Shown here piece after piece: positions 36,855 through 63,848 of a stretch of DNA of 64,000 nt. The notes under the pieces were generated by a model. It saw nothing but the letters and a program-made list of their open reading frames with translations, was not told where the DNA came from and ran no database searches. The stretch covers positions 4,608,001 through 4,672,000 of the forward strand of contig OZ242374.1 of assembly GCA_965209055.1 (NCBI GenBank), read 5' to 3'. The translations under genes and the position numbers were made by a program. Each line of letters starts with the position of its first letter. The stretch's first letter is position 1. Source of the stretch: Acidobacteriota bacterium. Lineage in GTDB: Bacteria > Acidobacteriota > UBA6911 > RPQK01 > JAJDTT01.

Positions 36855-36898
36855 GGGAGGGGACCTTCCTGTCCCTCCGAGGCAGTGGGGGTAGGAAA
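36855..36898. repeat. REP doublet: one intact unit plus the left half of a REP split by element E1
   Basis: GGGAGGGGACCTTCCTGTCCCTCCGA, then AGTGGGGGT-AGGAAA; the missing arm ACCCCCACTCCC lies at 44893-44904. Confidence 0.75.
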
Positions 36899-36930
36899 TC
36901 CGTTGCTCTGTCCAACTGAGCTACGGGATT
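36892..36930 (-). other. tRNA 5'-half-like sequence forming the att arm of E1 (not a complete tRNA)
   Basis: Minus strand AATCCCG TA GCTC AGTTGGACA GAGC A ACGGA TTTCCTA has canonical acceptor/D-arm/anticodon spacing; no T-arm follows. Confidence 0.8.
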
Positions 36931-36972: not shown

Positions 36973-38058
36973 TCATTTCCCCTTGCTCCCGACCCGTTGC
37001 CTGTTTGTTGCCTGTTGCGTTTGTGAGTCTTCGTTAGCCTGTGCCTCTCGAATGCTCTGGAGCGCATGCGAACTGACGTACCCCGCGTAGCGCATCGTCG
37101 TGCTGATCGCAGAGTGTCCCATCAGCTTCTGCACCGTCCTCACGTCCACGCCCCGCATCAGCCAATGGCTGCAACGGAATCGCCTCAGGTCGTGAAACCC
37201 AACCTTCAATCCCACCCGCTCGGCAGCACGACGTAGAGACTTGTCGGGATTCACCCATCTTGTCCCGGTCCGGCTGTTGACGAAGACGTATGGGATGTTC
37301 AGGTAGCGAACCAGCCCGGCCAGATATCCGGCGGCGTACTTCGAGAGCGGAATCTCTCTCGGTTCGTCGTCCTTGGTGAACTCCACCCACAACATCCGCC
37401 GACTCAGGTCCACCCGGCTCCAGGTGAGCGACAACGCTTCTCCCTTTCGAATCCCCGTCTCGCCGATCACTGCGATCATGGCTTGCATGTAAGGGTTGTC
37501 TATCGCCTCGACCAGGTCGCGGAACTGTTGAACCGCCAAAGGCCGGAAGACCTTCTTCGGCTCCTTTAGTTTGGGGAACCGAACCAGCGGATGTGTGTCC
37601 ACTTCCCCACACTCCAGTGCGTAGGAAAACAGCTTGCTGATGGCCGCAATGTCGCGGTTCACTGTGGCTGGCTGGACCTGTCCCTTCCGTTTCGCGACGT
37701 AGCGGTGGAGGTCCTTGCGCTGGAATTCCTTCAGGGGAATGTTTCCCAGCATGGCGTTGAGGCTCTTGAACGAGAGCGCATAGCGGCGCAAGCAGCGCAG
37801 ACGAGGTTTGCAATACTCCTCGAAAAAACGCTCGTAGAAACTCTGGACCGTCCAGATGGTGCGTTTCCCACCGGCGAGCTCGCGCTTGAGCTGCTTCCAG
37901 GTGCCGTCCAGGATGCTCGACTCGATTCGTGTTTGAAGTGCCTGTGCGCTCCGGTAATTGGGGGCGTACATTCGGAGCCGACCGGATCCGTTCGGCCAGT
38001 ACTTGCTGACGACATACCGCTGTCTCCCCCGGCGGTCCTTCACCTTGTAGATGCCCAT
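36973..38058 (-). CDS. Tyrosine recombinase/integrase (E1)
   Basis: TGIRKGE (R), FTK (K), FHDLRR (HxxR), LMGHS (H), TMRY (Y); AAGGAGG RBS. Confidence 0.95.
   Translation of the reverse strand: MGIYKVKDRRGRQRYVVSKYWPNGSGRLRMYAPNYRSAQALQTRIESSILDGTWKQLKRELAGGKRTIWTVQSFYERFFEEYCKPRLRCLRRYALSFKSLNAMLGNIPLKEFQRKDLHRYVAKRKGQVQPATVNRDIAAISKLFSYALECGEVDTHPLVRFPKLKEPKKVFRPLAVQQFRDLVEAIDNPYMQAMIAVIGETGIRKGEALSLTWSRVDLSRRMLWVEFTKDDEPREIPLSKYAAGYLAGLVRYLNIPYVFVNSRTGTRWVNPDKSLRRAAERVGLKVGFHDLRRFRCSHWLMRGVDVRTVQKLMGHSAISTTMRYAGYVSSHALQSIREAQANEDSQTQQATNRQRVGSKGK
36998..37016. promoter_or_regulatory. Putative integrase arm-type site, left end of E1
   Basis: TGCCTGTTtgtTGCCTGTT, also at 44759-44777, 53847-53864 (variant) and 56762-56780. 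Confidence 0.7.
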
Positions 38059-38642: not shown

Positions 38643-39590
38643 CTATCCGTGTGAAGGCACCGGCAAGAGAGTTAGGTAGTCGTGTCCACGTCCAGCGACT
38701 ACGTGGTATTTCCACTCCACCTCTGTTTTCTCTATCTTCACTCTGACGCGAGCACCGAATGGATCACGTCCGGCTATCTCTTCCACTTTACTCATATCGT
38801 CAAATGTGGCCGTCGCCACCGCGCTCTCGCCAAATCTAGATATACCGAAGTAGTGTCCGTCACGCAGTTGGAATTGCTTGTCGCCCATCAATTGGACAGA
38901 GTCCGCATAGATCGCACCGTCGTCGGCTTTGGGAAGAATGATGCCCCATTTGTCGAATTTCACCATCCAAAATTGAGGCTGCTTGGTGTGGATAAAAATC
39001 CAGTCCCTTTTAGGTCCGTCCGTGACCTCACTCATGAACCGCTCGATAAGCCGTTGTTCCGGGTGCATGATCTGCTCGCGCACAAGAGATACAGCCGTGC
39101 CCGCCGCGTAATCGTAACCTCGCCTTCCCAGCAAAGTGAACACCGAGAGGTAGGCAGCCTTCAGCCAACTGATGGTAGCGAAGCGTGGATCTGGCATTTT
39201 GAGTCGTACCTGGAACTCATCAGGCTTGAGAGTGTGCAGCACATGGGGTGAAACTCGGAGACCCGCCGTCCGTATGTCTATTATGTCATCTTCACCCACA
39301 TCAAGCTCAGCCCTGTGCGGGACACCTTTAATCTCCACAGTCGCCGTGGGCGCATGCATCAAAATTGATGCAGCCTGCTCCATTCCCCTTCCCGCCCGTT
39401 CATTACAGGTCCCGCAGGTAAGACAGATGTATCTGCTGGCAGAACTCAGCGCTTTGGGAGGAACATGCTCCAACGTGACGTCAACGCCACGCTTGACGCG
39501 CCCTTTCGTAAAAGGTGTTAGGCAGATCGGACACGCGTCGTTGCCCCGCCCGAACAGACTCATGCGCCGTTCGCTACCGGACCTACGCAT
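38643..39590 (-). CDS. HNH endonuclease-domain protein
   Basis: CPIC...TLEHVPPKAL...CLTCGTCNE zinc-binding HNH motif; lower GC than the flanks. Start reassigned to MRRSGS. Confidence 0.75.
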   Translation of the reverse strand: MRRSGSERRMSLFGRGNDACPICLTPFTKGRVKRGVDVTLEHVPPKALSSASRYICLTCGTCNERAGRGMEQAASILMHAPTATVEIKGVPHRAELDVGEDDIIDIRTAGLRVSPHVLHTLKPDEFQVRLKMPDPRFATISWLKAAYLSVFTLLGRRGYDYAAGTAVSLVREQIMHPEQRLIERFMSEVTDGPKRDWIFIHTKQPQFWMVKFDKWGIILPKADDGAIYADSVQLMGDKQFQLRDGHYFGISRFGESAVATATFDDMSKVEEIAGRDPFGARVRVKIEKTEVEWKYHVVAGRGHDYLTLLPVPSHG

Positions 39591-39592
39591 TC

Positions 39593-39997
39593 TCAATTCC
39601 TTTTCATGTTCTGGACATGGAGATAACTTCCGAGCGCATGGTAGTGTTTTTTCAAGGCCGCCGTATTGAATACTGGCTCCGAGCCTAGCCGCTTCCACTC
39701 CCGTGGTGGACTACCTTCCGTCTCTTCACGGCTATAGGAGAGTGATCTAGACCTATCCGCCATGGGATCCATTTCTAGAAGTCCCGCCATCACCTTCTGT
39801 GGTTGCCATGTCTCGTATTCATCCGGCGGAAACTCTTTCTTGTACGCAATGGCACGGTCGTAGGTAAGCGCCTCAATTGCCATACGCAGTTCCAGCATGG
39901 CGTATTTCAGACGCTCGTTATCGCCAGAGACAAAATCTTCTTGGAAACGCTTCAGATGTCTTCGGGCATCAGTACGAAACCTAGTCCGGGCAAGCAT
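39593..39997 (-). CDS. Hypothetical protein, possibly truncated
   Basis: 134-aa ORF co-oriented between the MTase and HNH genes; protein-like composition (YAMLELRMAIE...LGSYLH). Confidence 0.55.
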   Translation of the reverse strand: MLARTRFRTDARRHLKRFQEDFVSGDNERLKYAMLELRMAIEALTYDRAIAYKKEFPPDEYETWQPQKVMAGLLEMDPMADRSRSLSYSREETEGSPPREWKRLGSEPVFNTAALKKHYHALGSYLHVQNMKRN

Positions 39998-40024
39998 GAC
40001 GTTGCGCCGATGGTGGATAGCACA

Positions 40025-42820
40025 TTAGCTCTTCGGCCTTGTCGCCTTGCCGCCATGTACGGATGGCTCCGCGCACCATTGCCGACGCAGCAAGTCCAGC
40101 AAATCCTCTAGGTCCGCATCGAGTTTCAGGACGCTGAGCTTGCCGAACAGCAGTTCACGGTCCAGTTCCTGGCGTGTGTCATCCCGGTAGGCCTCGTTCG
40201 CGGGCAGAAACTTTCTACCCTTGAAGCGGGCGAAAATGTCTCGACAGTGATCCATCTGCGCTTCCGCTAGGGCGCGAGGGTCAAGCACCGGAAGGTCCGG
40301 AATAGCACTGATCTTGATGATTGACCTCCCCGCCTGCTGGCGAGTTCCTTTCCACCAGTGCATTAGCAGCCCAAGTGTCGAGTTGCCCCACAGCAGTAGC
40401 GGAATCTCATGTCGCTCGTTGCAGGGAATTACGTTAGGCCAAGCTCGACCGCCGAGACACTTTTCCGGCGTGAGACACATAACGAAACTCTGGGAATTCA
40501 GCCGGAAATCAATGTTGAAATGCAATCGGGATACCGTGCGGTTCCAGGTGCTGACGGCTTTCTCATCATATCCTGTCCGCACATCCCCGCAAGTGTCCGG
40601 ATGGACGATCAGTCGACGCTCCCTGTTTGCATCGTGGTTCCATAACGCGGGGTAGGTCGGAATCTCATCGTCGCGGATGGCGCGGATGTCGAAAGGTCCC
40701 TCTACAGGTGGCTTGTAGCCATTGATTAGGAGGCTATGAAGACCACGATCCGCGACAGTTCCTAGCTTGATGATAGGAATGTTGATCGCATGGCCCCCTC
40801 GTGGCAGTTGTAGCTGGCCTCTCTGCAATGCCTGTGCAGCACGGACTACACTATCCGATCGTGCACCTGCCGCTCCTGAATCGAAGATCGTACCTTGAAT
40901 TGACGGTTCGGTTCTGGCTGTGACCAGAGCTTCCAAGGTAGATGTAGGACGCGCGTCTAGGTTGATGAACGATACGAGCGGATTCCGTGGAGGCATTTTT
41001 CGTGCGACAACAAGACATTCGGCTATTCCGGTATCCGCCGAGAACGCCGTTTCCGTCGCGCCGGTTGTTGCGATCGCCGCGATGTGAATGTCGTCGTAAT
41101 GTTGATGCAACTTCGTCCGTGCCTTCTCCCATGACTTCCCACTATTAAAGGTAAACGGCAGCACAAGAGCTAAAACTCCACCGTCTTTCAGCTTGCGATG
41201 GGCCAGATCCATGAAGTTCGAGGCGAGACCGGCGTGGCCATGTCCAAATTCAGAACGAGTTTTCTTGAGTTGTTTTGCCATTGCACGCTGTTCGTCTTTG
41301 GAGGTGCCGAAACCTGCGAATGATGGGATCGGGATGCCCGCCCTCTTCGCCGCGTGGTTTGTGGACCGCGTGAACGGCGGGTTCATGATAATCAAATCGC
41401 AGGAACGATTCTTGACTGCGACCGAGTACTTGTGGCTGGTGTCCGCTTCCTTTCCCCCTATCGACTCCGCTCCCGTGGCGAACAGGGAATAAACTTGGTC
41501 GGCATCAAGCAGGTCCAGTGAACCGATATGCGTCTTGCCGCCATCAATGCCATAGGGCATCGTGTAGATGTTCGTCCTGCCGAACTTCTCTCCCGGATGA
41601 ACACTGGACAGCATCGAGCAAGTCAGGTGCGTGGCGGCGGGCATGATGTCCATGCCGATCATCGTGCGTTCCACCAAGCCGGCATGGAGATTCAGGTCGT
41701 TACCTCCCATCCTGCGATACCGGCGGCAGATGGCGCGCTGCACAGCGGAGAGCAGGGCTCCAGTGCCACAAGCAAAATCGGCGATCCGCAAGTTCTCGAT
41801 GGCCCCCTTGTTCGACCAGTCTACTGGCAGACGTTCCACCGCAAGTTCCGCGAGGAGCGTTGCTGACGCAGGCAGCGTGTAGAAAGTGGCCAGGAACTTA
41901 CGGTCGGCAATAAGAGCCTGAAACATTCGCCCCGTGAGTTCGTGGTAGGTGGTCGCGCCCAGGGAGGCCAGCGAAGAGGACGTCTCCAGAAGCCGGTCCA
42001 TCAAGCGCGGCACTAGGGGTGTTTGGATCTCCTCAAGTAACGACGTGGCGATGGAGAAGATCGGCCAGTAGTTGATGGCCAGAATTGCATCCCATGTGTC
42101 CAACAATCTCTCCTTGTTCCTTCCAACTCCGCGCAGGGTGGAGAGACTCGGAATCCCCTCCTGACCCTCGATGGAGGCGTGGAACACAAACGCGGAAGTG
42201 AGGATCGCGGCGACCATCCGGAGGGTCTGGTCGCCTTGGCTTTGCTTGAGCTTTTCGGCAAGACGATGCCGCACGTGTGCTGTGGATTGCTGCGACAGTA
42301 GACCAGCACATGCTTTGACTGTCGTCTCAAGCATCCGCACCCCTTGGTCAAGCTTTCGTTGCGACAGGGACAAAGCCTCGATGGCATCCGCCAACTCATC
42401 CACCGTCCCTTCGAGATAGTCTGACAACGGCCAACGGGAATGGTGACCATCCTTGTTCAGGTGGTGCGTGGCGTAGCGCAGCTTGGAGTTCTCTATGGCA
42501 GCCAGCGAACCGGTCTTCAGTTCGACCGGAAACACGACGGAGAGCGCGCTTTCGATGGTATCCCCGGTGGAATCCAGCTTCCGCCCGAGACGGCCAATGG
42601 CTTCGTTCTCGACCGTCCGGGCGGGATCGAACTCAGTCTCGACAGCGACTGGCTGGCGGGATGGTGTATGGATCAAGATATCGATCTGGCCGGAGCCTCC
42701 CTGCAACACGCCAGTCCGTTCCGCATGGACAGACGTGTCATCCCAGAGCGGGTGGCGTTTCATCAGGGCGCGGGCCAGGGCGCCGTTCGCCTGGGGCTCA
42801 GTATTTCGGGGCAGGCTCAT
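40025..42820 (-). CDS. N6-adenine DNA methyltransferase with N-terminal nuclease-like segment (type IIG/IIL-like fused R-M enzyme)
   Basis: FYT, motif I DFACGTG and motif IV MNPPF; N-terminal IDILI...VAVETEF resembles a PD-(D/E)xK variant. Confidence 0.8.
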   Translation of the reverse strand: MSLPRNTEPQANGALARALMKRHPLWDDTSVHAERTGVLQGGSGQIDILIHTPSRQPVAVETEFDPARTVENEAIGRLGRKLDSTGDTIESALSVVFPVELKTGSLAAIENSKLRYATHHLNKDGHHSRWPLSDYLEGTVDELADAIEALSLSQRKLDQGVRMLETTVKACAGLLSQQSTAHVRHRLAEKLKQSQGDQTLRMVAAILTSAFVFHASIEGQEGIPSLSTLRGVGRNKERLLDTWDAILAINYWPIFSIATSLLEEIQTPLVPRLMDRLLETSSSLASLGATTYHELTGRMFQALIADRKFLATFYTLPASATLLAELAVERLPVDWSNKGAIENLRIADFACGTGALLSAVQRAICRRYRRMGGNDLNLHAGLVERTMIGMDIMPAATHLTCSMLSSVHPGEKFGRTNIYTMPYGIDGGKTHIGSLDLLDADQVYSLFATGAESIGGKEADTSHKYSVAVKNRSCDLIIMNPPFTRSTNHAAKRAGIPIPSFAGFGTSKDEQRAMAKQLKKTRSEFGHGHAGLASNFMDLAHRKLKDGGVLALVLPFTFNSGKSWEKARTKLHQHYDDIHIAAIATTGATETAFSADTGIAECLVVARKMPPRNPLVSFINLDARPTSTLEALVTARTEPSIQGTIFDSGAAGARSDSVVRAAQALQRGQLQLPRGGHAINIPIIKLGTVADRGLHSLLINGYKPPVEGPFDIRAIRDDEIPTYPALWNHDANRERRLIVHPDTCGDVRTGYDEKAVSTWNRTVSRLHFNIDFRLNSQSFVMCLTPEKCLGGRAWPNVIPCNERHEIPLLLWGNSTLGLLMHWWKGTRQQAGRSIIKISAIPDLPVLDPRALAEAQMDHCRDIFARFKGRKFLPANEAYRDDTRQELDRELLFGKLSVLKLDADLEDLLDLLRRQWCAEPSVHGGKATRPKS

Positions 42821-42969
42821 GAGCGTCTCCGCGCCATGGACTCACACGCTTCGCCGCAACGGGGACAGTCCATGCGGTTTCCTTGGTAGCCACAGTCCGG
42901 GCAGTGATAAGAGTTCCGGTTCTGGAGCCGATCCAGAGCCAGCTTCCTGATGGTCTCCATTCTCTCCAT
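42817..42969 (-). CDS. Small zinc-ribbon protein (50 aa)
   Basis: CPDCG...CPRCG; its stop overlaps the MTase start (ATGA). Confidence 0.55.
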   Translation of the reverse strand: MERMETIRKLALDRLQNRNSYHCPDCGYQGNRMDCPRCGEACESMARRRS

Positions 42970-43067
42970 GTGGATGTCCCAACTGCTCATACAGTTCATT
43001 CTGCCAGAACGGTCTGCCGCGTCCGGAATCATTTCTCGGAGCGGAGCGTCTCTTCTGTGGTTTCTCT

Positions 43068-43381
43068 CCGGGCCTTCCCGCAGGGAGGATTGAGACGGGA
43101 GCGACCCCCCCAGGGGGTGTTGCGCAAATGTGAATTGCGCAACACCCCCGCGCCCGCACCGGGCAGCAAAAAGGGGGGGTCGCTCCCGTCCACCTCCATT
43201 TTCCCCGTGCGGCCACCCGGTGGCCGGAAATGGGGCCGTAACTGACTGAAAGGAAACAGGATCGGGGAACGCGCATTTGTGAATGACCGGGACCGCTTTT
43301 TGTGAATCCACCCCCTTTGTCCCATTCACATCCCGGATCGGGCGCGAGACCCTCTTGACGCACTGCCGAAACGAGCCTCCA
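43068..43381. other. Conserved structured non-coding module of E1 (candidate oriT/origin or ncRNA)
   Basis: Homologous to 56062-56375; nested perfect 18-bp and 15-bp stems; four TGTGAAT motifs. Confidence 0.7.
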
Positions 43382-43604
43382 TTGGCCCTTGCGACTGCCG
43401 AATGCGTTCACCGTCAATCACGACTTGGAAGGAGCGAACTTCCGCCGCTGGTTGCCTCTCGACCGCCCGCTTCAGTGTGGCCGTCACCCCTCCGTAGGAG
43501 TTGAGCAGGGCCGTATCCCCCGTTGGAACGGCGCGTTTGAATCGGACGGCGACAATCGTGTAGCTTGATGAGCCGATTGAGATATCTAGCATTGGGACGC
43601 AGAA

Positions 43605-44660
43605 ATGACTGAGGAACTGTGTATCTGGGCGGTCGACGGGTCGGGGACGGTGGAGCCCCTGTCTCCGCTCAAGCAGATGCCTACAGAGTTGCGATTTGAG
43701 GAGCTGATCGTTCGCAATCCGGAAATGCTAGAACCCGGCCTCCGTTTGGTGGGACGACAGACTCCTACTCAAACCGGTTGGCTGGACCTGCTTGCTATCG
43801 ACACGGACGGTCGTCTGGTCGTCTGCGAGTTGAAACGCGGAATGCTTGCCCGGGAGGCCGTGACCCAAGTCTTGGACTACGCTTCGGACTTGGATGCCAT
43901 GAGTACCGGGGACCTCGCGGAGCACATTTCCGATCGCTCCGGGAATCACGGTATCGAACGGATCGATGACTTCGAGCAATGGTACGCCGACAACTTCGGC
44001 GGGGACGACCTGTCTCGCCTCCTGCCGCCCCGCATGGTGCTGGTCGGATTGGGCGTGGACACCGTAGCCGAACGAATGGCGAGATTCATTTCTGCTGGGC
44101 CGGTCGATATTTCCGTGGTTACATTCCACGGGTTTCGACGTGAAGGGGAGCAACTCCTGGCTCGACAATTGGAGGTCGAGTCAGGACGAACAGAAGTCAT
44201 CCGAAGGCGTCGTTCCGCAACCACGGCCGAAAAGCGTCGCCTTTTGGGGAAATACCTGGTTGACAATGGATACAAGGACCTCTTTGACCGAGTAAATGCC
44301 GATCTTCGCCGACATCTGCCAGAGCAGGGCGTTTGGGAGCAGCCAGGTAGCACGGGGGTCGGATTTTTGCTCAGCGAGCCAGAGGACTCCAAGGTCTGGA
44401 AAACCTACTTCGGCGTGCAAGCTGGATATCTGGGAACGGAAGTGTACAGCGTCAGCGTTTTGCCGCAGGCGATTACATGGGGCGGAGACGGTGCATTTGA
44501 GAGACTCCGTGGTTCCGTCGATCTCGAAGAATGGACACACGGTGGCTATGCCCTCTCCTTCAAGACTCCGGAAGAGTGGGACGAGATTCGACCACAAGTG
44601 CTTGAGTTCGTTCACACCGTCTTGGCGAATCGAACGAACGTGGAAGGGCCAAAAAACTGA
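43605..44660 (+). CDS. NucS/DUF91-like PD-(D/E)xK endonuclease-domain protein
   Basis: LVGRQ...LDLLAID...VVCELKRG...QVLDYA motif. Confidence 0.8.
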   Translation: MTEELCIWAVDGSGTVEPLSPLKQMPTELRFEELIVRNPEMLEPGLRLVGRQTPTQTGWLDLLAIDTDGRLVVCELKRGMLAREAVTQVLDYASDLDAMSTGDLAEHISDRSGNHGIERIDDFEQWYADNFGGDDLSRLLPPRMVLVGLGVDTVAERMARFISAGPVDISVVTFHGFRREGEQLLARQLEVESGRTEVIRRRRSATTAEKRRLLGKYLVDNGYKDLFDRVNADLRRHLPEQGVWEQPGSTGVGFLLSEPEDSKVWKTYFGVQAGYLGTEVYSVSVLPQAITWGGDGAFERLRGSVDLEEWTHGGYALSFKTPEEWDEIRPQVLEFVHTVLANRTNVEGPKN

Positions 44661-44758
44661 GTTCGACTGCCCGACCTTCGTCACACCGGATCTGGTGACG
44701 GCGGGCCTATATCGCAGAGGAAATAGTTCCGGACCGGCATCGCAGGCTTGAATACTGC

Positions 44759-44892
44759 TGCCTGTTTGTTGCCTGTTCAGCACGTCAAACATAGGGAGTC
44801 AACCACGCTACCGATTCGGCGAAGAACCCGGTAAGCCATTGAAAAAGTTAATGTTTGGTAGTTGTTGACTGTGGGGCTATCGGGATAGGAAA
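44759..44892. other. Right-end att region of E1
   Basis: Colinear with 56762-56895; contains an arm repeat, CGGCGAAGAACCCGG, an IHF-like site (44832-44844) and the core. Confidence 0.8.
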
Positions 44893-53621: not shown

Positions 53622-53707
53622 GGAGCGGCAACTTTCCTGTCGCCGGGAGCGGCGGTTTTCTTACCGCCGATTGGGGGGATACGGAGGGACGGCAGTCCCC
53701 CCTATAC
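53622..53707. repeat. Cluster of REP-like palindromes
   Basis: GGAGCGGCAACTTTCCTGTCGCCG, GGAGCGGCGGTTTTCTTACCGCCGA and GGGGGGA...TCCCCCC. Confidence 0.7.
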
Positions 53708-53741
53708 GTTTTTGTTCTACGCTCTTATTCGGGTCGGGGGA

Positions 53742-53780
53742 CTAACAGTCCCGTGCTCTGTCCTGCTGAGCTTGGGGCGA
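53742..53780 (-). other. tRNA 5'-half-like sequence forming the att arm of E2
   Basis: Minus strand TCGCCCC AA GCTC AGCAGGACA GAGC A CGGGA CTGTTAG (TCCC); same spacing as in E1; no T-arm. Confidence 0.8.
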
Positions 53781-53818: not shown

Positions 53819-54907
53819 CTAATCATTCCCCCTATTTCCTGCCTGTTGCCTGTTTGTTGCCGGTCGCATTTGTGAGTCTTCGGTAGCCTGTGCCTTCCGA
53901 ATGCTGGCGAGTGCATGAGAACTGACGTAACCCGCGTAGCGCATGGTCGTGCTGATCGACGAGTGCCCCATCAGCTTCTGCACCGTCCTCACGTCCACCC
54001 CCTGCATCAGCCAATGGCTGCAGCGGAATCGTCTCAGGTCGTGAAATCCGACCTTCAACCCCACCCGCTCGGCGGCCCGGCGCAACGGCTTGTCCGGATT
54101 CACCCATCTCGTGCCGGTCCGGATGTTGACGAAGACGTATGGCGTGTTCAGGTAACGAACCAGCCCGACCAGGTATCCGGTGGCGTACTTCGAGAGCGGA
54201 ATCTCCCTCGGCTCGTCGTCCTTGGTGAACTCCACCCATAGCAGCCTCCGGACCAGGTCCACCCGTTTCCAGGTGAGCGACAACGCTTCGCCTTTCCGTA
54301 TCCCCGTCTCGCCGATCACCGCAACCATGGCTTGCAGGTAAGGGTTGTCCATCGCCTCGACCAGGTCGCGGAACTGTTGAACCGTCAAAGGCCGGAAGAC
54401 CTTCTTGGGTTCTTTGAGTTTGGGGAACCGAACCAGCGGGTGCGTGTCCACTTCCCCGCACTCCAGCGCGTAGGAAAACAGCTTGCTGATGGCGGCAATG
54501 TCGCGGTTCACCGTGGCCGGCTGCACTTGCTTCTTCCTCCGGGCGACGTAGCGGTACAGGTCCTTGCGTTGGAACTCCTTCAGGGGAATGTTCCCCAGCA
54601 CGGCGTTGAGGCTCTTGAACGAGAGCGCGTAGCGACGGCGGGAGCGCATGCGAGGTTTGCAATACTCCTCGAAGAAACGCTCGTAGAAGCTCCGTACCGT
54701 CCAGACGGTGCGATTCCCGCCGGCGAGCTCCTCCTTGAGCTGCTTCCAGGTGCCGTCCAGGATGCTGGACTCGATTCGTGTTTGAAGCGCCTGCGCGCTC
54801 CGGTAGTTGGGGGCGTACATTCGGAGCCGACCGGATCCGTTCGGCCAGTACTTGCTGACGACGTACCGTCGTCTCCCCCGGCGATCCTTCACCTTGTAGA
54901 TGCCCAT
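53819..54907 (-). CDS. Tyrosine recombinase/integrase (E2), about 90% identical to the E1 integrase
   Basis: All catalytic residues intact; about 37 aa differences counted by eye; start MGIYKV at 54907 with the same RBS. Confidence 0.95.
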   Translation of the reverse strand: MGIYKVKDRRGRRRYVVSKYWPNGSGRLRMYAPNYRSAQALQTRIESSILDGTWKQLKEELAGGNRTVWTVRSFYERFFEEYCKPRMRSRRRYALSFKSLNAVLGNIPLKEFQRKDLYRYVARRKKQVQPATVNRDIAAISKLFSYALECGEVDTHPLVRFPKLKEPKKVFRPLTVQQFRDLVEAMDNPYLQAMVAVIGETGIRKGEALSLTWKRVDLVRRLLWVEFTKDDEPREIPLSKYATGYLVGLVRYLNTPYVFVNIRTGTRWVNPDKPLRRAAERVGLKVGFHDLRRFRCSHWLMQGVDVRTVQKLMGHSSISTTMRYAGYVSSHALASIRKAQATEDSQMRPATNRQQAGNRGND

Positions 54908-56050: not shown

Positions 56051-56061
56051 TCGGTCTTCTT

Positions 56062-56375
56062 CCGGGCCTTCCCGCAGGGAGAATTGAGACGGGAGCGACC
56101 CCCCCAGGGGGTGTTGCGCAAATGTGAATTGCGCAACGCCCCCGCGCCCGCACCGGGCAGCAAAAAGGGGGGGTCGCTCCCGTCCACCTCCGATTTCCCC
56201 GTGCAGGCGCCGGCGTTCGGGGGTAGGGGACCGTAACTGACTGAAAGGAAAACAGATCGGGGAAAGCAGAGGTGTGAATCACCGGGACCGCCTTTTGTGA
56301 ATCCACCCCCCATGTCCCATTCACATCCCGGATCAGGCGCGAGACCCCTTGACGCACACCCGAACCGAGTCTCCA
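56062..56375. other. Conserved structured non-coding module of E2
   Basis: Homologue of 43068-43381 with the same nested stems and TGTGAAT motifs. Confidence 0.7.
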
Positions 56376-56888
56376 AAAACCATTGCGGCACCGAGAGTGG
56401 TCATCTCGATCACAACTGAGACGGAGCGATCCTCCACCCGCGGTGCGCTGCCATCCAGGAGCGCAGACCCTTGGCGGCCACATGCTCCGGATCGACACCG
56501 ACGAGGACGACCCTGTCGTCCTCGTCGGCAATCGGCAGTTTGAACGCCAAGGAGCGCCGAGTCTTCCCCACCGTGCCGTAGTACACTTGCCGGGGATGCC
56601 GATTCATGGGAACGTCGCGCCGTTGGAAGCCGGACACCTTCGGCCTCAGGCTGAGTCCTGCGGTGGAGCCAAACGGTCGGCAAAGCCTATCGGATAAGGT
56701 CTCTGAGCCAGGCAACGGAAGGGGGAAAACGGGCGCGGCGGCGTTCAGGAACCGATTCGGCTGCCTGTTTGTTGCCTGTTCAGTATGTCAAACATGGGGA
56801 GTCAACCACCTTACCGGTCCGGCGAAGAACCCGGTAACATATTGAAAACGTTAACGTTCGGTAGTCTTTGACTGTGAGACAGTTGGGA

Positions 56889-58244
<1,356 letters not shown>

Positions 58245-63772: not shown

Positions 63773-63848
63773 GGAAGGGCGATTTCCAATCGCCCATTCT
63801 TCGTTACCGGTCACTCTGGAGTTCGGCGGGCAGGATACCGCCGTTCCT
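63773..63848. repeat. REP-like palindrome doublet downstream of ftsK
   Basis: GGAAGGGCGATTTCCAATCGCCC and an inverted unit CGGCGGGCAGGATACCGCCGTTCCT. Confidence 0.6.

Follow-up and report, generated by a model that had tools for sequence, protein, structure and literature searches.

Integrase-linked relics of a tRNA-Arg(UCU) 5' half point to a change of target from tRNA genes to REP-like hairpins

Two short blocks on the minus strand of the window (the whole stretch of 64,000 nt analysed here) raise the question of why a mobile element would carry what looks like half of a tRNA. A preliminary description of this DNA had quoted both blocks and placed each downstream of an integrase gene, with the final 7 nt, at the position of the anticodon loop, read as a duplicated crossover core. 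Both sequences occur letter for letter at the positions given in Table 1, on the minus strand and about 40 nt 3' of a tyrosine-integrase gene, and homology between the two elements (E1, ~8.0 kb, and E2, ~3.1 kb) spans the integrase gene and the block and ends at the 7-mer. The duplication of the 7-mer was likewise confirmed by a second copy at the far end of each element, where TCCC adjoins the core in both cases, as expected from the earlier proposal that the circular form would gain TCCC from the other end. The spacing had been equated with tRNA positions 1-38, and indeed the alignment to the host tRNA is gapless and includes a 9-nt D-loop; the E1 relic comprises the acceptor 5' strand, the D-arm and the 5' strand of the anticodon stem. 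The reported absence of a T-arm also stands, with the inner 36 nt of the far end matching the tRNA 3' half at just 9-10 of 36 positions (25/25 paired elements of this genome, described below).

Both genes encode tyrosine (lambda-type) integrases with the R...HxxR...Y catalytic domain recognized by PF00589, and int1 also matches Xer/integrase structures in the PDB. The translations of both contain TGIRKGE, HDLRRF and MRYAGY, which we take to be the R...HxxR...Y signature of tyrosine integrases; PF24624 (Int_N) scored 24.8-25.9 bits on the integrases, slightly below its cut-off of 27. Tandem ACAGGCA repeats lie in both arms of attP, ~100-125 nt from the core, with the near pair inside the 3' coding end of the integrase gene, and from their sequence we regard them as candidate arm-type Int sites. 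The far arm is a conserved 134-nt block with 30 copies in the genome, and in E1 it opens with TCCC (44882-44885), the putative former 3' strand of the anticodon stem. The E1 repeat is exactly 7 nt, as the bases bordering its two copies differ, so the exchange must fall inside the 7-mer or at its edges; in E2 the likeness of the attP and attB stems lengthens the identity between the two ends to 15 nt (GGGACTGTTAGTCCC). Pfam and PHROG searches with the small ORFs of E1 and E2 gave no credible match, and their translations look non-coding. The E1 cargo between 40025 and 44660 is of defence type.

Every element also carries a conserved non-coding block; of its 66 genomic copies, 33 lie apart from the 26 elements. 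The RNAalifold consensus of 40 distinct copies consists of a long closing stem around two hairpins, with 42 pairs and 8 two-sided changes. The block contains no credible ORF and has no Pfam, PHROG or Rfam match, and ARAGORN mistakes two of its copies for tRNA-Val genes. The block may represent a structured RNA, or else a site resembling oriT.

Table 1. Features of elements E1 and E2 in the window
Feature	Position	Strand	Details
E1 block	36930..36892	minus	AATCCCG-TA-GCTC-AGTTGGACA-GAGC-A-ACGGA-[TTTCCTA]
E1 relic, tRNA-Arg(UCU) positions 1-31, element-carried	36899..36930	minus	gapless alignment to host tRNA-Arg(TCT)
E1 near-end core TTTCCTA, putative former anticodon loop, now predicted 7-bp overlap (crossover) region	36892..36898	minus	duplicated at 44886-44892
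int1, tyrosine integrase, 361 aa	36973-38058	minus	PF00589 E 2.8e-25; PHROG 1 integrase E 3.6e-54
E1 near-arm tandem ACAGGCA, spaced 11 bp, in int 3' coding end	36998..37015	minus	recurs at 44759-44776 and in E2
E1 cargo	38643..44660	not a single strand	includes methyltransferase/restriction and NucS-C proteins
Eco57I-type methyltransferase/restriction protein, 931 aa	40025-42820	minus	PF07669 E 1.8e-06
NucS C-terminal nuclease domain protein	43605-44660	plus	PF01939 E 1.7e-09
E1 far arm	44752..44885	minus	84% identical to E2 far arm; ACAGGCA repeats 44759-44776
E1 far-end core TTTCCTA	44886..44892	minus	host GGGAGTGGGGGT outside
E2 block	53780..53742	minus	TCGCCCC-AA-GCTC-AGCAGGACA-GAGC-A-CGGGA-[CTGTTAG]
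E2 relic, tRNA-Arg(UCU) positions 1-31	53749..53780	minus	alignment to host tRNA-Arg(TCT)
E2 near-end core CTGTTAG	53742..53748	minus	duplicated at 56889-56895
int2, tyrosine integrase, 90% identical to int1	53819-54907	minus	PF00589 E 1.5e-25
Conserved non-coding structured block, in every element	56051..56400 (E2); ~43057-43393 (E1)	minus	RNAalifold
E2 far arm	56755..56888	minus	TCCC 56885-56888; ACAGGCA repeats 56762-56779
E2 far-end core CTGTTAG, includes purA stop TAG	56889..56895	minus	intact orthologous hairpin 3' of purA in L084, L085

The D-loop of the blocks had been said to resemble tRNA-Arg, and comparison with the host tRNAs extends this likeness to the whole block, which is a near-copy of the 5' half of the host tRNA-Arg(UCU). 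Using the tRNA-Arg(TCT) gene found by ARAGORN on the whole genome as the reference, the gapless alignment of E1 matches at 27/31 positions from base 1 to base 31 and at 24/25 from base 8 to base 32; the corresponding values for E2 are 25/31 and 21/25. To set these values against background, bases 8-32 of the tRNA (a 25-mer) were scanned against both strands of the 6.08-Mb genome. A score of at least 19/25 occurred at 36 sites: the tRNA itself, four other tRNA-Arg genes, three other tRNAs, 27 integrase-adjacent blocks and one unrelated site, which scores 19/25 and is the only one of its kind at or above that value; below it, 10 sites scored 18/25 and 61 scored 17/25 on the two strands. Gapless identity to the host tRNA-Arg(TCT) was 18-23/24 in all 26 integrase-adjacent blocks examined in this genome. 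The blocks are thus fragments of a tRNA-Arg(UCU) 5' half, aligned in register at an identity well over background, and on this sequence comparison their resemblance to the tRNA is homology, not chance.

Searches for tRNA genes as such found nothing. ARAGORN called no tRNA in the window, at the 25 reconstructed attP sites or at the 25 integrated junctions (0 in each); Rfam gave no hit anywhere in the window at gathering thresholds, no tRNA at E<=10 in the surroundings of either block (where the sole matches, to miRNAs and frameshift elements, were due to chance), and only a chance miRNA match in the non-int part of E2. The preliminary description had proposed a covariance-model search as a check, counting a missing tRNA signal against its own reading. 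Taken literally that outcome did occur, as no Rfam tRNA signal was found; the search is nevertheless not a valid test, since a genuine displaced tRNA 5' fragment from a relative, 100% identical to its tRNA, reaches just 14.3 bits (E 3.2), where the gathering score is 29. Because this genuine fragment also misses the gathering score, the missing signal carries little weight. The blocks lack the full cloverleaf, and with it the T-arm and 3' acceptor strand, of a functional tRNA gene: with the 3' half absent and the acceptor strand decayed, the relic no longer makes a tRNA.

The silence of ARAGORN and Rfam might also be taken to favour an origin as a chance inverted repeat or as host debris, that is, tRNA fragments displaced by earlier integrations, which are common beside genomic islands. 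We give this practically no credence: identity to tRNA-Arg(TCT) lies far over the genome background, the block moves with the integrase gene to 25 loci with unrelated host flanks, and canonical islands displace 3' parts of tRNA genes, not 5' parts.

The genome contains 26 full-length copies of the integrase, 89-100% identical, plus fragments. Both ends could be paired for 25 elements, which range from 2.7 to 25 kb, while the 26th runs off a contig end. All 25 carry the tRNA-like block after the integrase gene, each in a different host flank, and the same 7-mer at both ends. The cores of these 25 elements are CTGTTAG (8), CTAACAG (7), TTTCCAA (5), TTTCCTA (4) and TTTCTAA (1). Identical or near-identical integrases occur at different hairpins with unrelated flanks (for example at 4496745 and 6055740), which points to recent movement.

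We reconstructed the target (attB) sites by joining the outer flanks of each element. The earlier proposal of retargeting to REP-like hairpins is borne out by these sites, all 25 of which are palindromic and GC-rich with the core in or at the loop; examples are GGAGGGGGGA-CTGTTAG-TCCCCC, GGGGCGA-TTTCCAA-TCGCCC and AGTGGGGG-T-TTTCCTA-CCCCCACT, and the CTAACAG target is the CTGTTAG hairpin read from the other strand. The core is directly flanked by 3-7 Watson-Crick pairs in 20 of the 25 attB sites, and the remaining five have an 8-nt loop. Empty copies of the target hairpins are extragenic palindromes present in high number and standing in REP-like arrays: the whole genome holds 79 of GGCGATTTCCAATCGCC (the TTTCCAA type), 14 of the TTTCTAA form and 8 of GGGGACTGTTAGTCCCC (CTGTTAG), and just one each of the E1-type TTTCCTA hairpin and the GGGGGT-TTTCCAA-CCCCC hairpin. 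The orthologue of the E2 site is empty in two of eight congeners (L084 and L085), which have an uninterrupted GGGGACTGTTAGTCCCC 3' of purA followed by the same right-hand flank.

Several further features of the hairpins and their surroundings were recorded. Several REP-like hairpin families occur genome-wide (GGCGATTTCCAATCGCC, CGGCGGTTAGGAAACCGCCG, GGGGGTTAACAACCCCC and GGGGACAGGAAAGTCCCC), often as arrays, with an example in the window at 63778, and ARAGORN gives false tRNA calls on several REP-like arrays. In the empty sites of L084 and L085 the shared right flank is separated from the CTGTTAG hairpin by a second hairpin of ~27 nt. This second hairpin is missing beside E2 (53700-53741), where the host sequence to the right of the element matches its 3' strand, a pattern that suggests deletion or recombination between neighbouring hairpins. 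The last codons of purA pass through the 5' stem of the E2 target, with the stop codon TAG inside the target loop CTGTTAG (56889-56895), and duplication of the core on insertion preserves the purA stop codon. Several other targets carry TAG immediately before the hairpin.

The preliminary description had supposed that the ancestor of these elements targeted a tRNA gene, and relatives that still do so were found among the genomes compared, all of which are metagenome assemblies. The closest, in a congener (L025, the same locus as L050; genomes G001 and G049), has an integrase 86% identical to those described here, followed 38-47 nt past its end by a complete, co-directional tRNA-Arg(TCT) gene (RF00005, 71.7 bits), which in L025 begins 38 nt from the integrase stop codon. 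The far end of this element, ~47 kb away, carries tRNA positions 1-42 a second time, at 100% identity and directly adjoining the conserved far-arm block; ARAGORN calls no tRNA on this displaced copy. The 42-nt direct repeat begins exactly at tRNA position 1, and it follows that the element supplies the 5' part of the tRNA gene. Among the best six DNA matches to this tRNA in the L025 genome, five are called by ARAGORN, and only the integrase-adjacent one has the anticodon TCT. The G001 relative thus shows the hallmarks of integration in reversed orientation, namely a direct repeat of the 5' part, an intact tRNA gene beside the integrase gene and a displaced 5' fragment, whereas E1 and E2 themselves lie in hairpins, not in a tRNA gene. 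At E<=1e-40 the L025 genome contains one copy of the integrase, compared with 26 here.

More widely in the order, 35 of 76 genomes contain an integrase match at E<=1e-40. A tRNA gene lies no more than 130 nt from the integrase 3' end at 20 of 22 more distant loci (34-71% identity). Sixteen of these 20 are convergent with the integrase gene, with tRNA-Leu, tRNA-Thr and tRNA-Arg as targets. In this canonical arrangement the 3' part of the tRNA is replaced by the element. The other four are co-directional: L051 (Arg-tct), L052 (Arg-tcg), L060 (Thr-cgt) and L074 (Arg-ccg). A real, complete and co-directional tRNA-Arg therefore follows the integrase, at the position homologous to the blocks, in L025, L051 and L052. 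In G010 and G041, which harbour the relatives at 71% identity, 5' tRNA fragments at 91% identity are present, none of which could be paired with the elements. In both of these genomes one tRNA-Arg gene stands between two integrases of the family (G010:C1:5131139-5133451 and G041:C21:320539-322467), a convergent one on its 3' side (48-54%) and a co-directional one on its 5' side (71%), so that both halves of the gene may be element-derived.

As had been suggested, we placed the integrase among tRNA-targeting ones, using an IQ-TREE phylogeny of 56 integrases with midpoint rooting (the partial sequences L023, L024, L026-L028, L054, L070, L071 and L073 and the duplicates L046-L050 and L053 were left out). 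All 36 hairpin-targeting rows group in a single clade (support 100/94), which every bootstrap tree contains; for 10 of these rows, from other genomes, the label reflects how we ourselves interpreted the junctions. L025 is the sister of this clade (100/97), the reversed tRNA-Arg targeters L051 and L052 come next (100/100), and the canonical tRNA targeters fall outside. Hairpin targeters are thus nested within reversed tRNA-Arg targeters, and these within ordinary tRNA targeters. With the midpoint root outside the 39-row clade and two successive reversed-tRNA outgroups, the tree supports the derivation of hairpin targeting from reversed tRNA-Arg targeting, and the decayed acceptor strand in the hairpin copies agrees with this direction, from tRNA to hairpin. 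We therefore consider it highly probable that the blocks are element-borne fossils of the 5' half of a tRNA-Arg(UCU), retained in the attP of a family that has been retargeted to REP-like hairpins.

How the overlap changed can be followed within the clade, which has at least 12 overlap forms, each matching its target loop. Among them is a one-step series from CTTCTAA (tRNA) through TTTCTAA and TTTCCAA to TTTCCTA. On either side of the overlap, GGA (positions 29-31) and TCCC are invariant in the 25 copies at 7/7 columns, compared with 39% of 125 four-fold synonymous sites in the integrase gene; this gives a rough P of 1.4e-3, whose significance is overstated by the relatedness of the copies. 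Going by this conservation, GGA...TCCC around the overlap probably represents the Int core half-sites. CTGTTAG and CTAACAG are reverse complements and correspond to opposite insertion orientations in the same hairpin, and the tree intermixes copies with the two cores, as in the sister pair 4661828 and 2828156 (100/96). Orientation switching may be easy, as the outer CT...AG is kept in both orientations.

From this anatomy we infer the following mechanism. The attP would be ~260 bp long, with the overlap bordered by the 31-nt relic on its left and by TCCC on its right, and the block would be the integrase-proximal half. The closest relatives themselves sit in the anticodon loop of tRNA-Arg(UCU/UCG) genes, inserted in reversed orientation, a rare arrangement; in them tRNA positions 1-42 come from the element and not from the host, and the intact gene is rebuilt just downstream of the integrase gene. 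In the present lineage the 7-bp overlap, formerly the anticodon loop, would have mutated, and the family would have moved to GC-rich REP-like hairpins whose 7-nt loop serves as the overlap. The inverted half-sites once found in the anticodon stem (CGGA/TCCG) would now be offered by the hairpin stem (GGGA/TCCC or GCGA/TCGC), and the overlap sequence would determine which hairpin family is entered and in which orientation. The abundance of targets would have let the family grow to its 26 copies. As for the relic, its only role is most likely that of double-stranded DNA within attP.

The preliminary description had drawn attention to the D-arm, noting that it is kept while its flanks diverge and suggesting that it might be a binding site or a functional RNA at the 3' end of the int transcript. 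The contrast is real as a description: mean pairwise identity is 0.797 over the 17 D-arm columns and 0.578 over the 12 columns of relic positions 1-9 and 26-28, which lie below both the D-arm (p 0.002) and the synonymous baseline (p 0.0006). It does not single out the D-arm, the conservation of which equals that of four-fold synonymous sites in the integrase gene (0.795; Mann-Whitney p 0.77). All of these p-values are rough, with significance overstated by the relatedness of the copies. The proposed test of D-stem covariation gave no support either. We compared 33 distinct sequences of the relic, including one real tRNA: all four pairs are standard in 20 and at least one is broken in 13, pair 10-25 being mismatched in 10, and two-sided compensation occurs in two. 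Pairing is thus not maintained, there is no sign in these sequences of selection for an RNA fold in the relic, and neither of the suggested functions is upheld; retention of the D-arm would be expected of such a young family anyway.

Selection could still keep the D-arm as a DNA site in attP, either an extended Int core or an accessory site for bending or an excision factor, 8-22 bp from the overlap. Besides the difference from the rest of the relic (p 0.002), T12-A14 and G18-G24 stand at 0.84-1.00, the D-arm adjoins the invariant GGA half-site, and by our own reading its 3' part (ACAGAGCAAC) resembles the arm repeat ACAGGCAAC. We treat such a site as a tentative and rather doubtful option, given that D-arm conservation does not rise above that of the synonymous sites and that attB carries nothing similar, so Int does not need such a site on the partner.

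An RNA function for the relic, whether as a tRNA-half-like or D-arm 3' end of the int transcript or as a chimeric tRNA-like RNA with the host hairpin as its anticodon arm, draws on the fact that the tRNA-inserted relative must express its rebuilt tRNA from element-side sequence. In the elements, tRNA position 1 is preceded at 16-17 nt by a TAAAGT, TAAACT or TAAAGG box, a distance equal to that of TGnTAAAGT from native tRNA-Arg genes, and the near arm may still be transcribed outward. Judging by its sequence and position, the box may serve as the promoter required by an element in reversed orientation. A simple scan for sigma-70 promoters and terminators in both near arms and in L025 predicted no promoter and did not call the box. 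Given also that the D-stem is standard in only 20/33 variants, with 10-25 mismatched in 10/33 and only two compensated, and that the acceptor strand is decayed and partnerless with no T-arm, we find an RNA function quite improbable. The same low standing applies to a more specific version, in which the box and 5' half would be transcribed outward from the 26 elements into the hairpins and processed into chimeric tRNA-like regulators or decoys; were it true, the fossil would be an exapted RNA gene and not dead attP DNA.

Two further observations were set aside. Metatranscriptome contigs matching 36895-36927 are short and continue into a T-arm, and belong to the tRNA-Arg genes of other organisms; two raw-read RNA runs gave 0 matching reads, a result that carries no weight either way. 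An upstream GGGAT/GGCGT appeared to covary with the acceptor strand (ATCCC/ACGCC), a pattern confined to two clades and failing in several copies.

How site-specific integrases gain new targets is an old open question, with practical bearing on integrase engineering. The fossil reading of the blocks makes this family a natural series: a single lineage of integrases, 89-100% identical within this genome, with at least 12 overlap sequences and their matched hairpins (including both orientations of one hairpin), a living relative in the ancestral tRNA gene, and a tRNA 5'-half fossil that gives the direction of change. The geometry of a REP hairpin is that of an anticodon stem-loop, which suggests that jumps from tRNA genes to REPs are thereby easy. 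The consequence of the jump can be read from copy numbers, with one copy in the single-target relative and 26 in the multi-target descendant.

Zhao and Williams reportedly described in 2002 a reversed tRNA-integrating element, with the 5' portion of the tRNA on the element and the intact gene rebuilt on the integrase side. The G001 relative is the same in that the element carries the 5' portion of the tRNA, whereas the elements of the window are not in a tRNA gene and have a decayed 5' half and hairpin targets at 25 or more sites. A search covering the main texts of the full-text literature returned no account of a family whose integrase left a tRNA gene for REP-like hairpins while retaining a tRNA half.

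Mobile elements mostly recombine with tRNA genes in their 3'-distal part, use of the 5'-distal part being 'considerably less frequent' (PMC6563490, citing Zhao & Williams 2002 and others). The pTN3-like integrases of Thermococcales (Cossu et al. 2017) are an example of the latter: according to the review PMC8371274, their attB is the tRNA 5' half and the crossover is thought to border the anticodon loop. They resemble the present family in using a 5' half and differ in being archaeal, of another integrase lineage and still tRNA-specific. The same review notes that a 7-bp anticodon loop with its palindromic stem fits the overlap-plus-core layout of attB (Campbell's model; PMC8371274). Canonical anticodon-loop integrases (Williams 2002, NAR 30:866) have the same arrangement as ours, with the 7-bp overlap in the loop and the inverted half-sites in the stem; the orientation is flipped in the clade at 71% identity and above, and the target of the clade in the window is no longer a tRNA.

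REP-specific insertion sequences such as IS1397 and ISPpu9/ISPpu10 (Tobes & Pareja 2006, PMC1525189; PMC8450116) share with the present elements a specific insertion into repeated extragenic palindromes. Such insertion sequences use DDE or IS110-type transposases, whereas the elements described here encode a heterobivalent-type tyrosine integrase, for which conservative site-specific recombination is predicted from sequence, have a duplicated core of 7 nt and carry cargo of up to ~25 kb.
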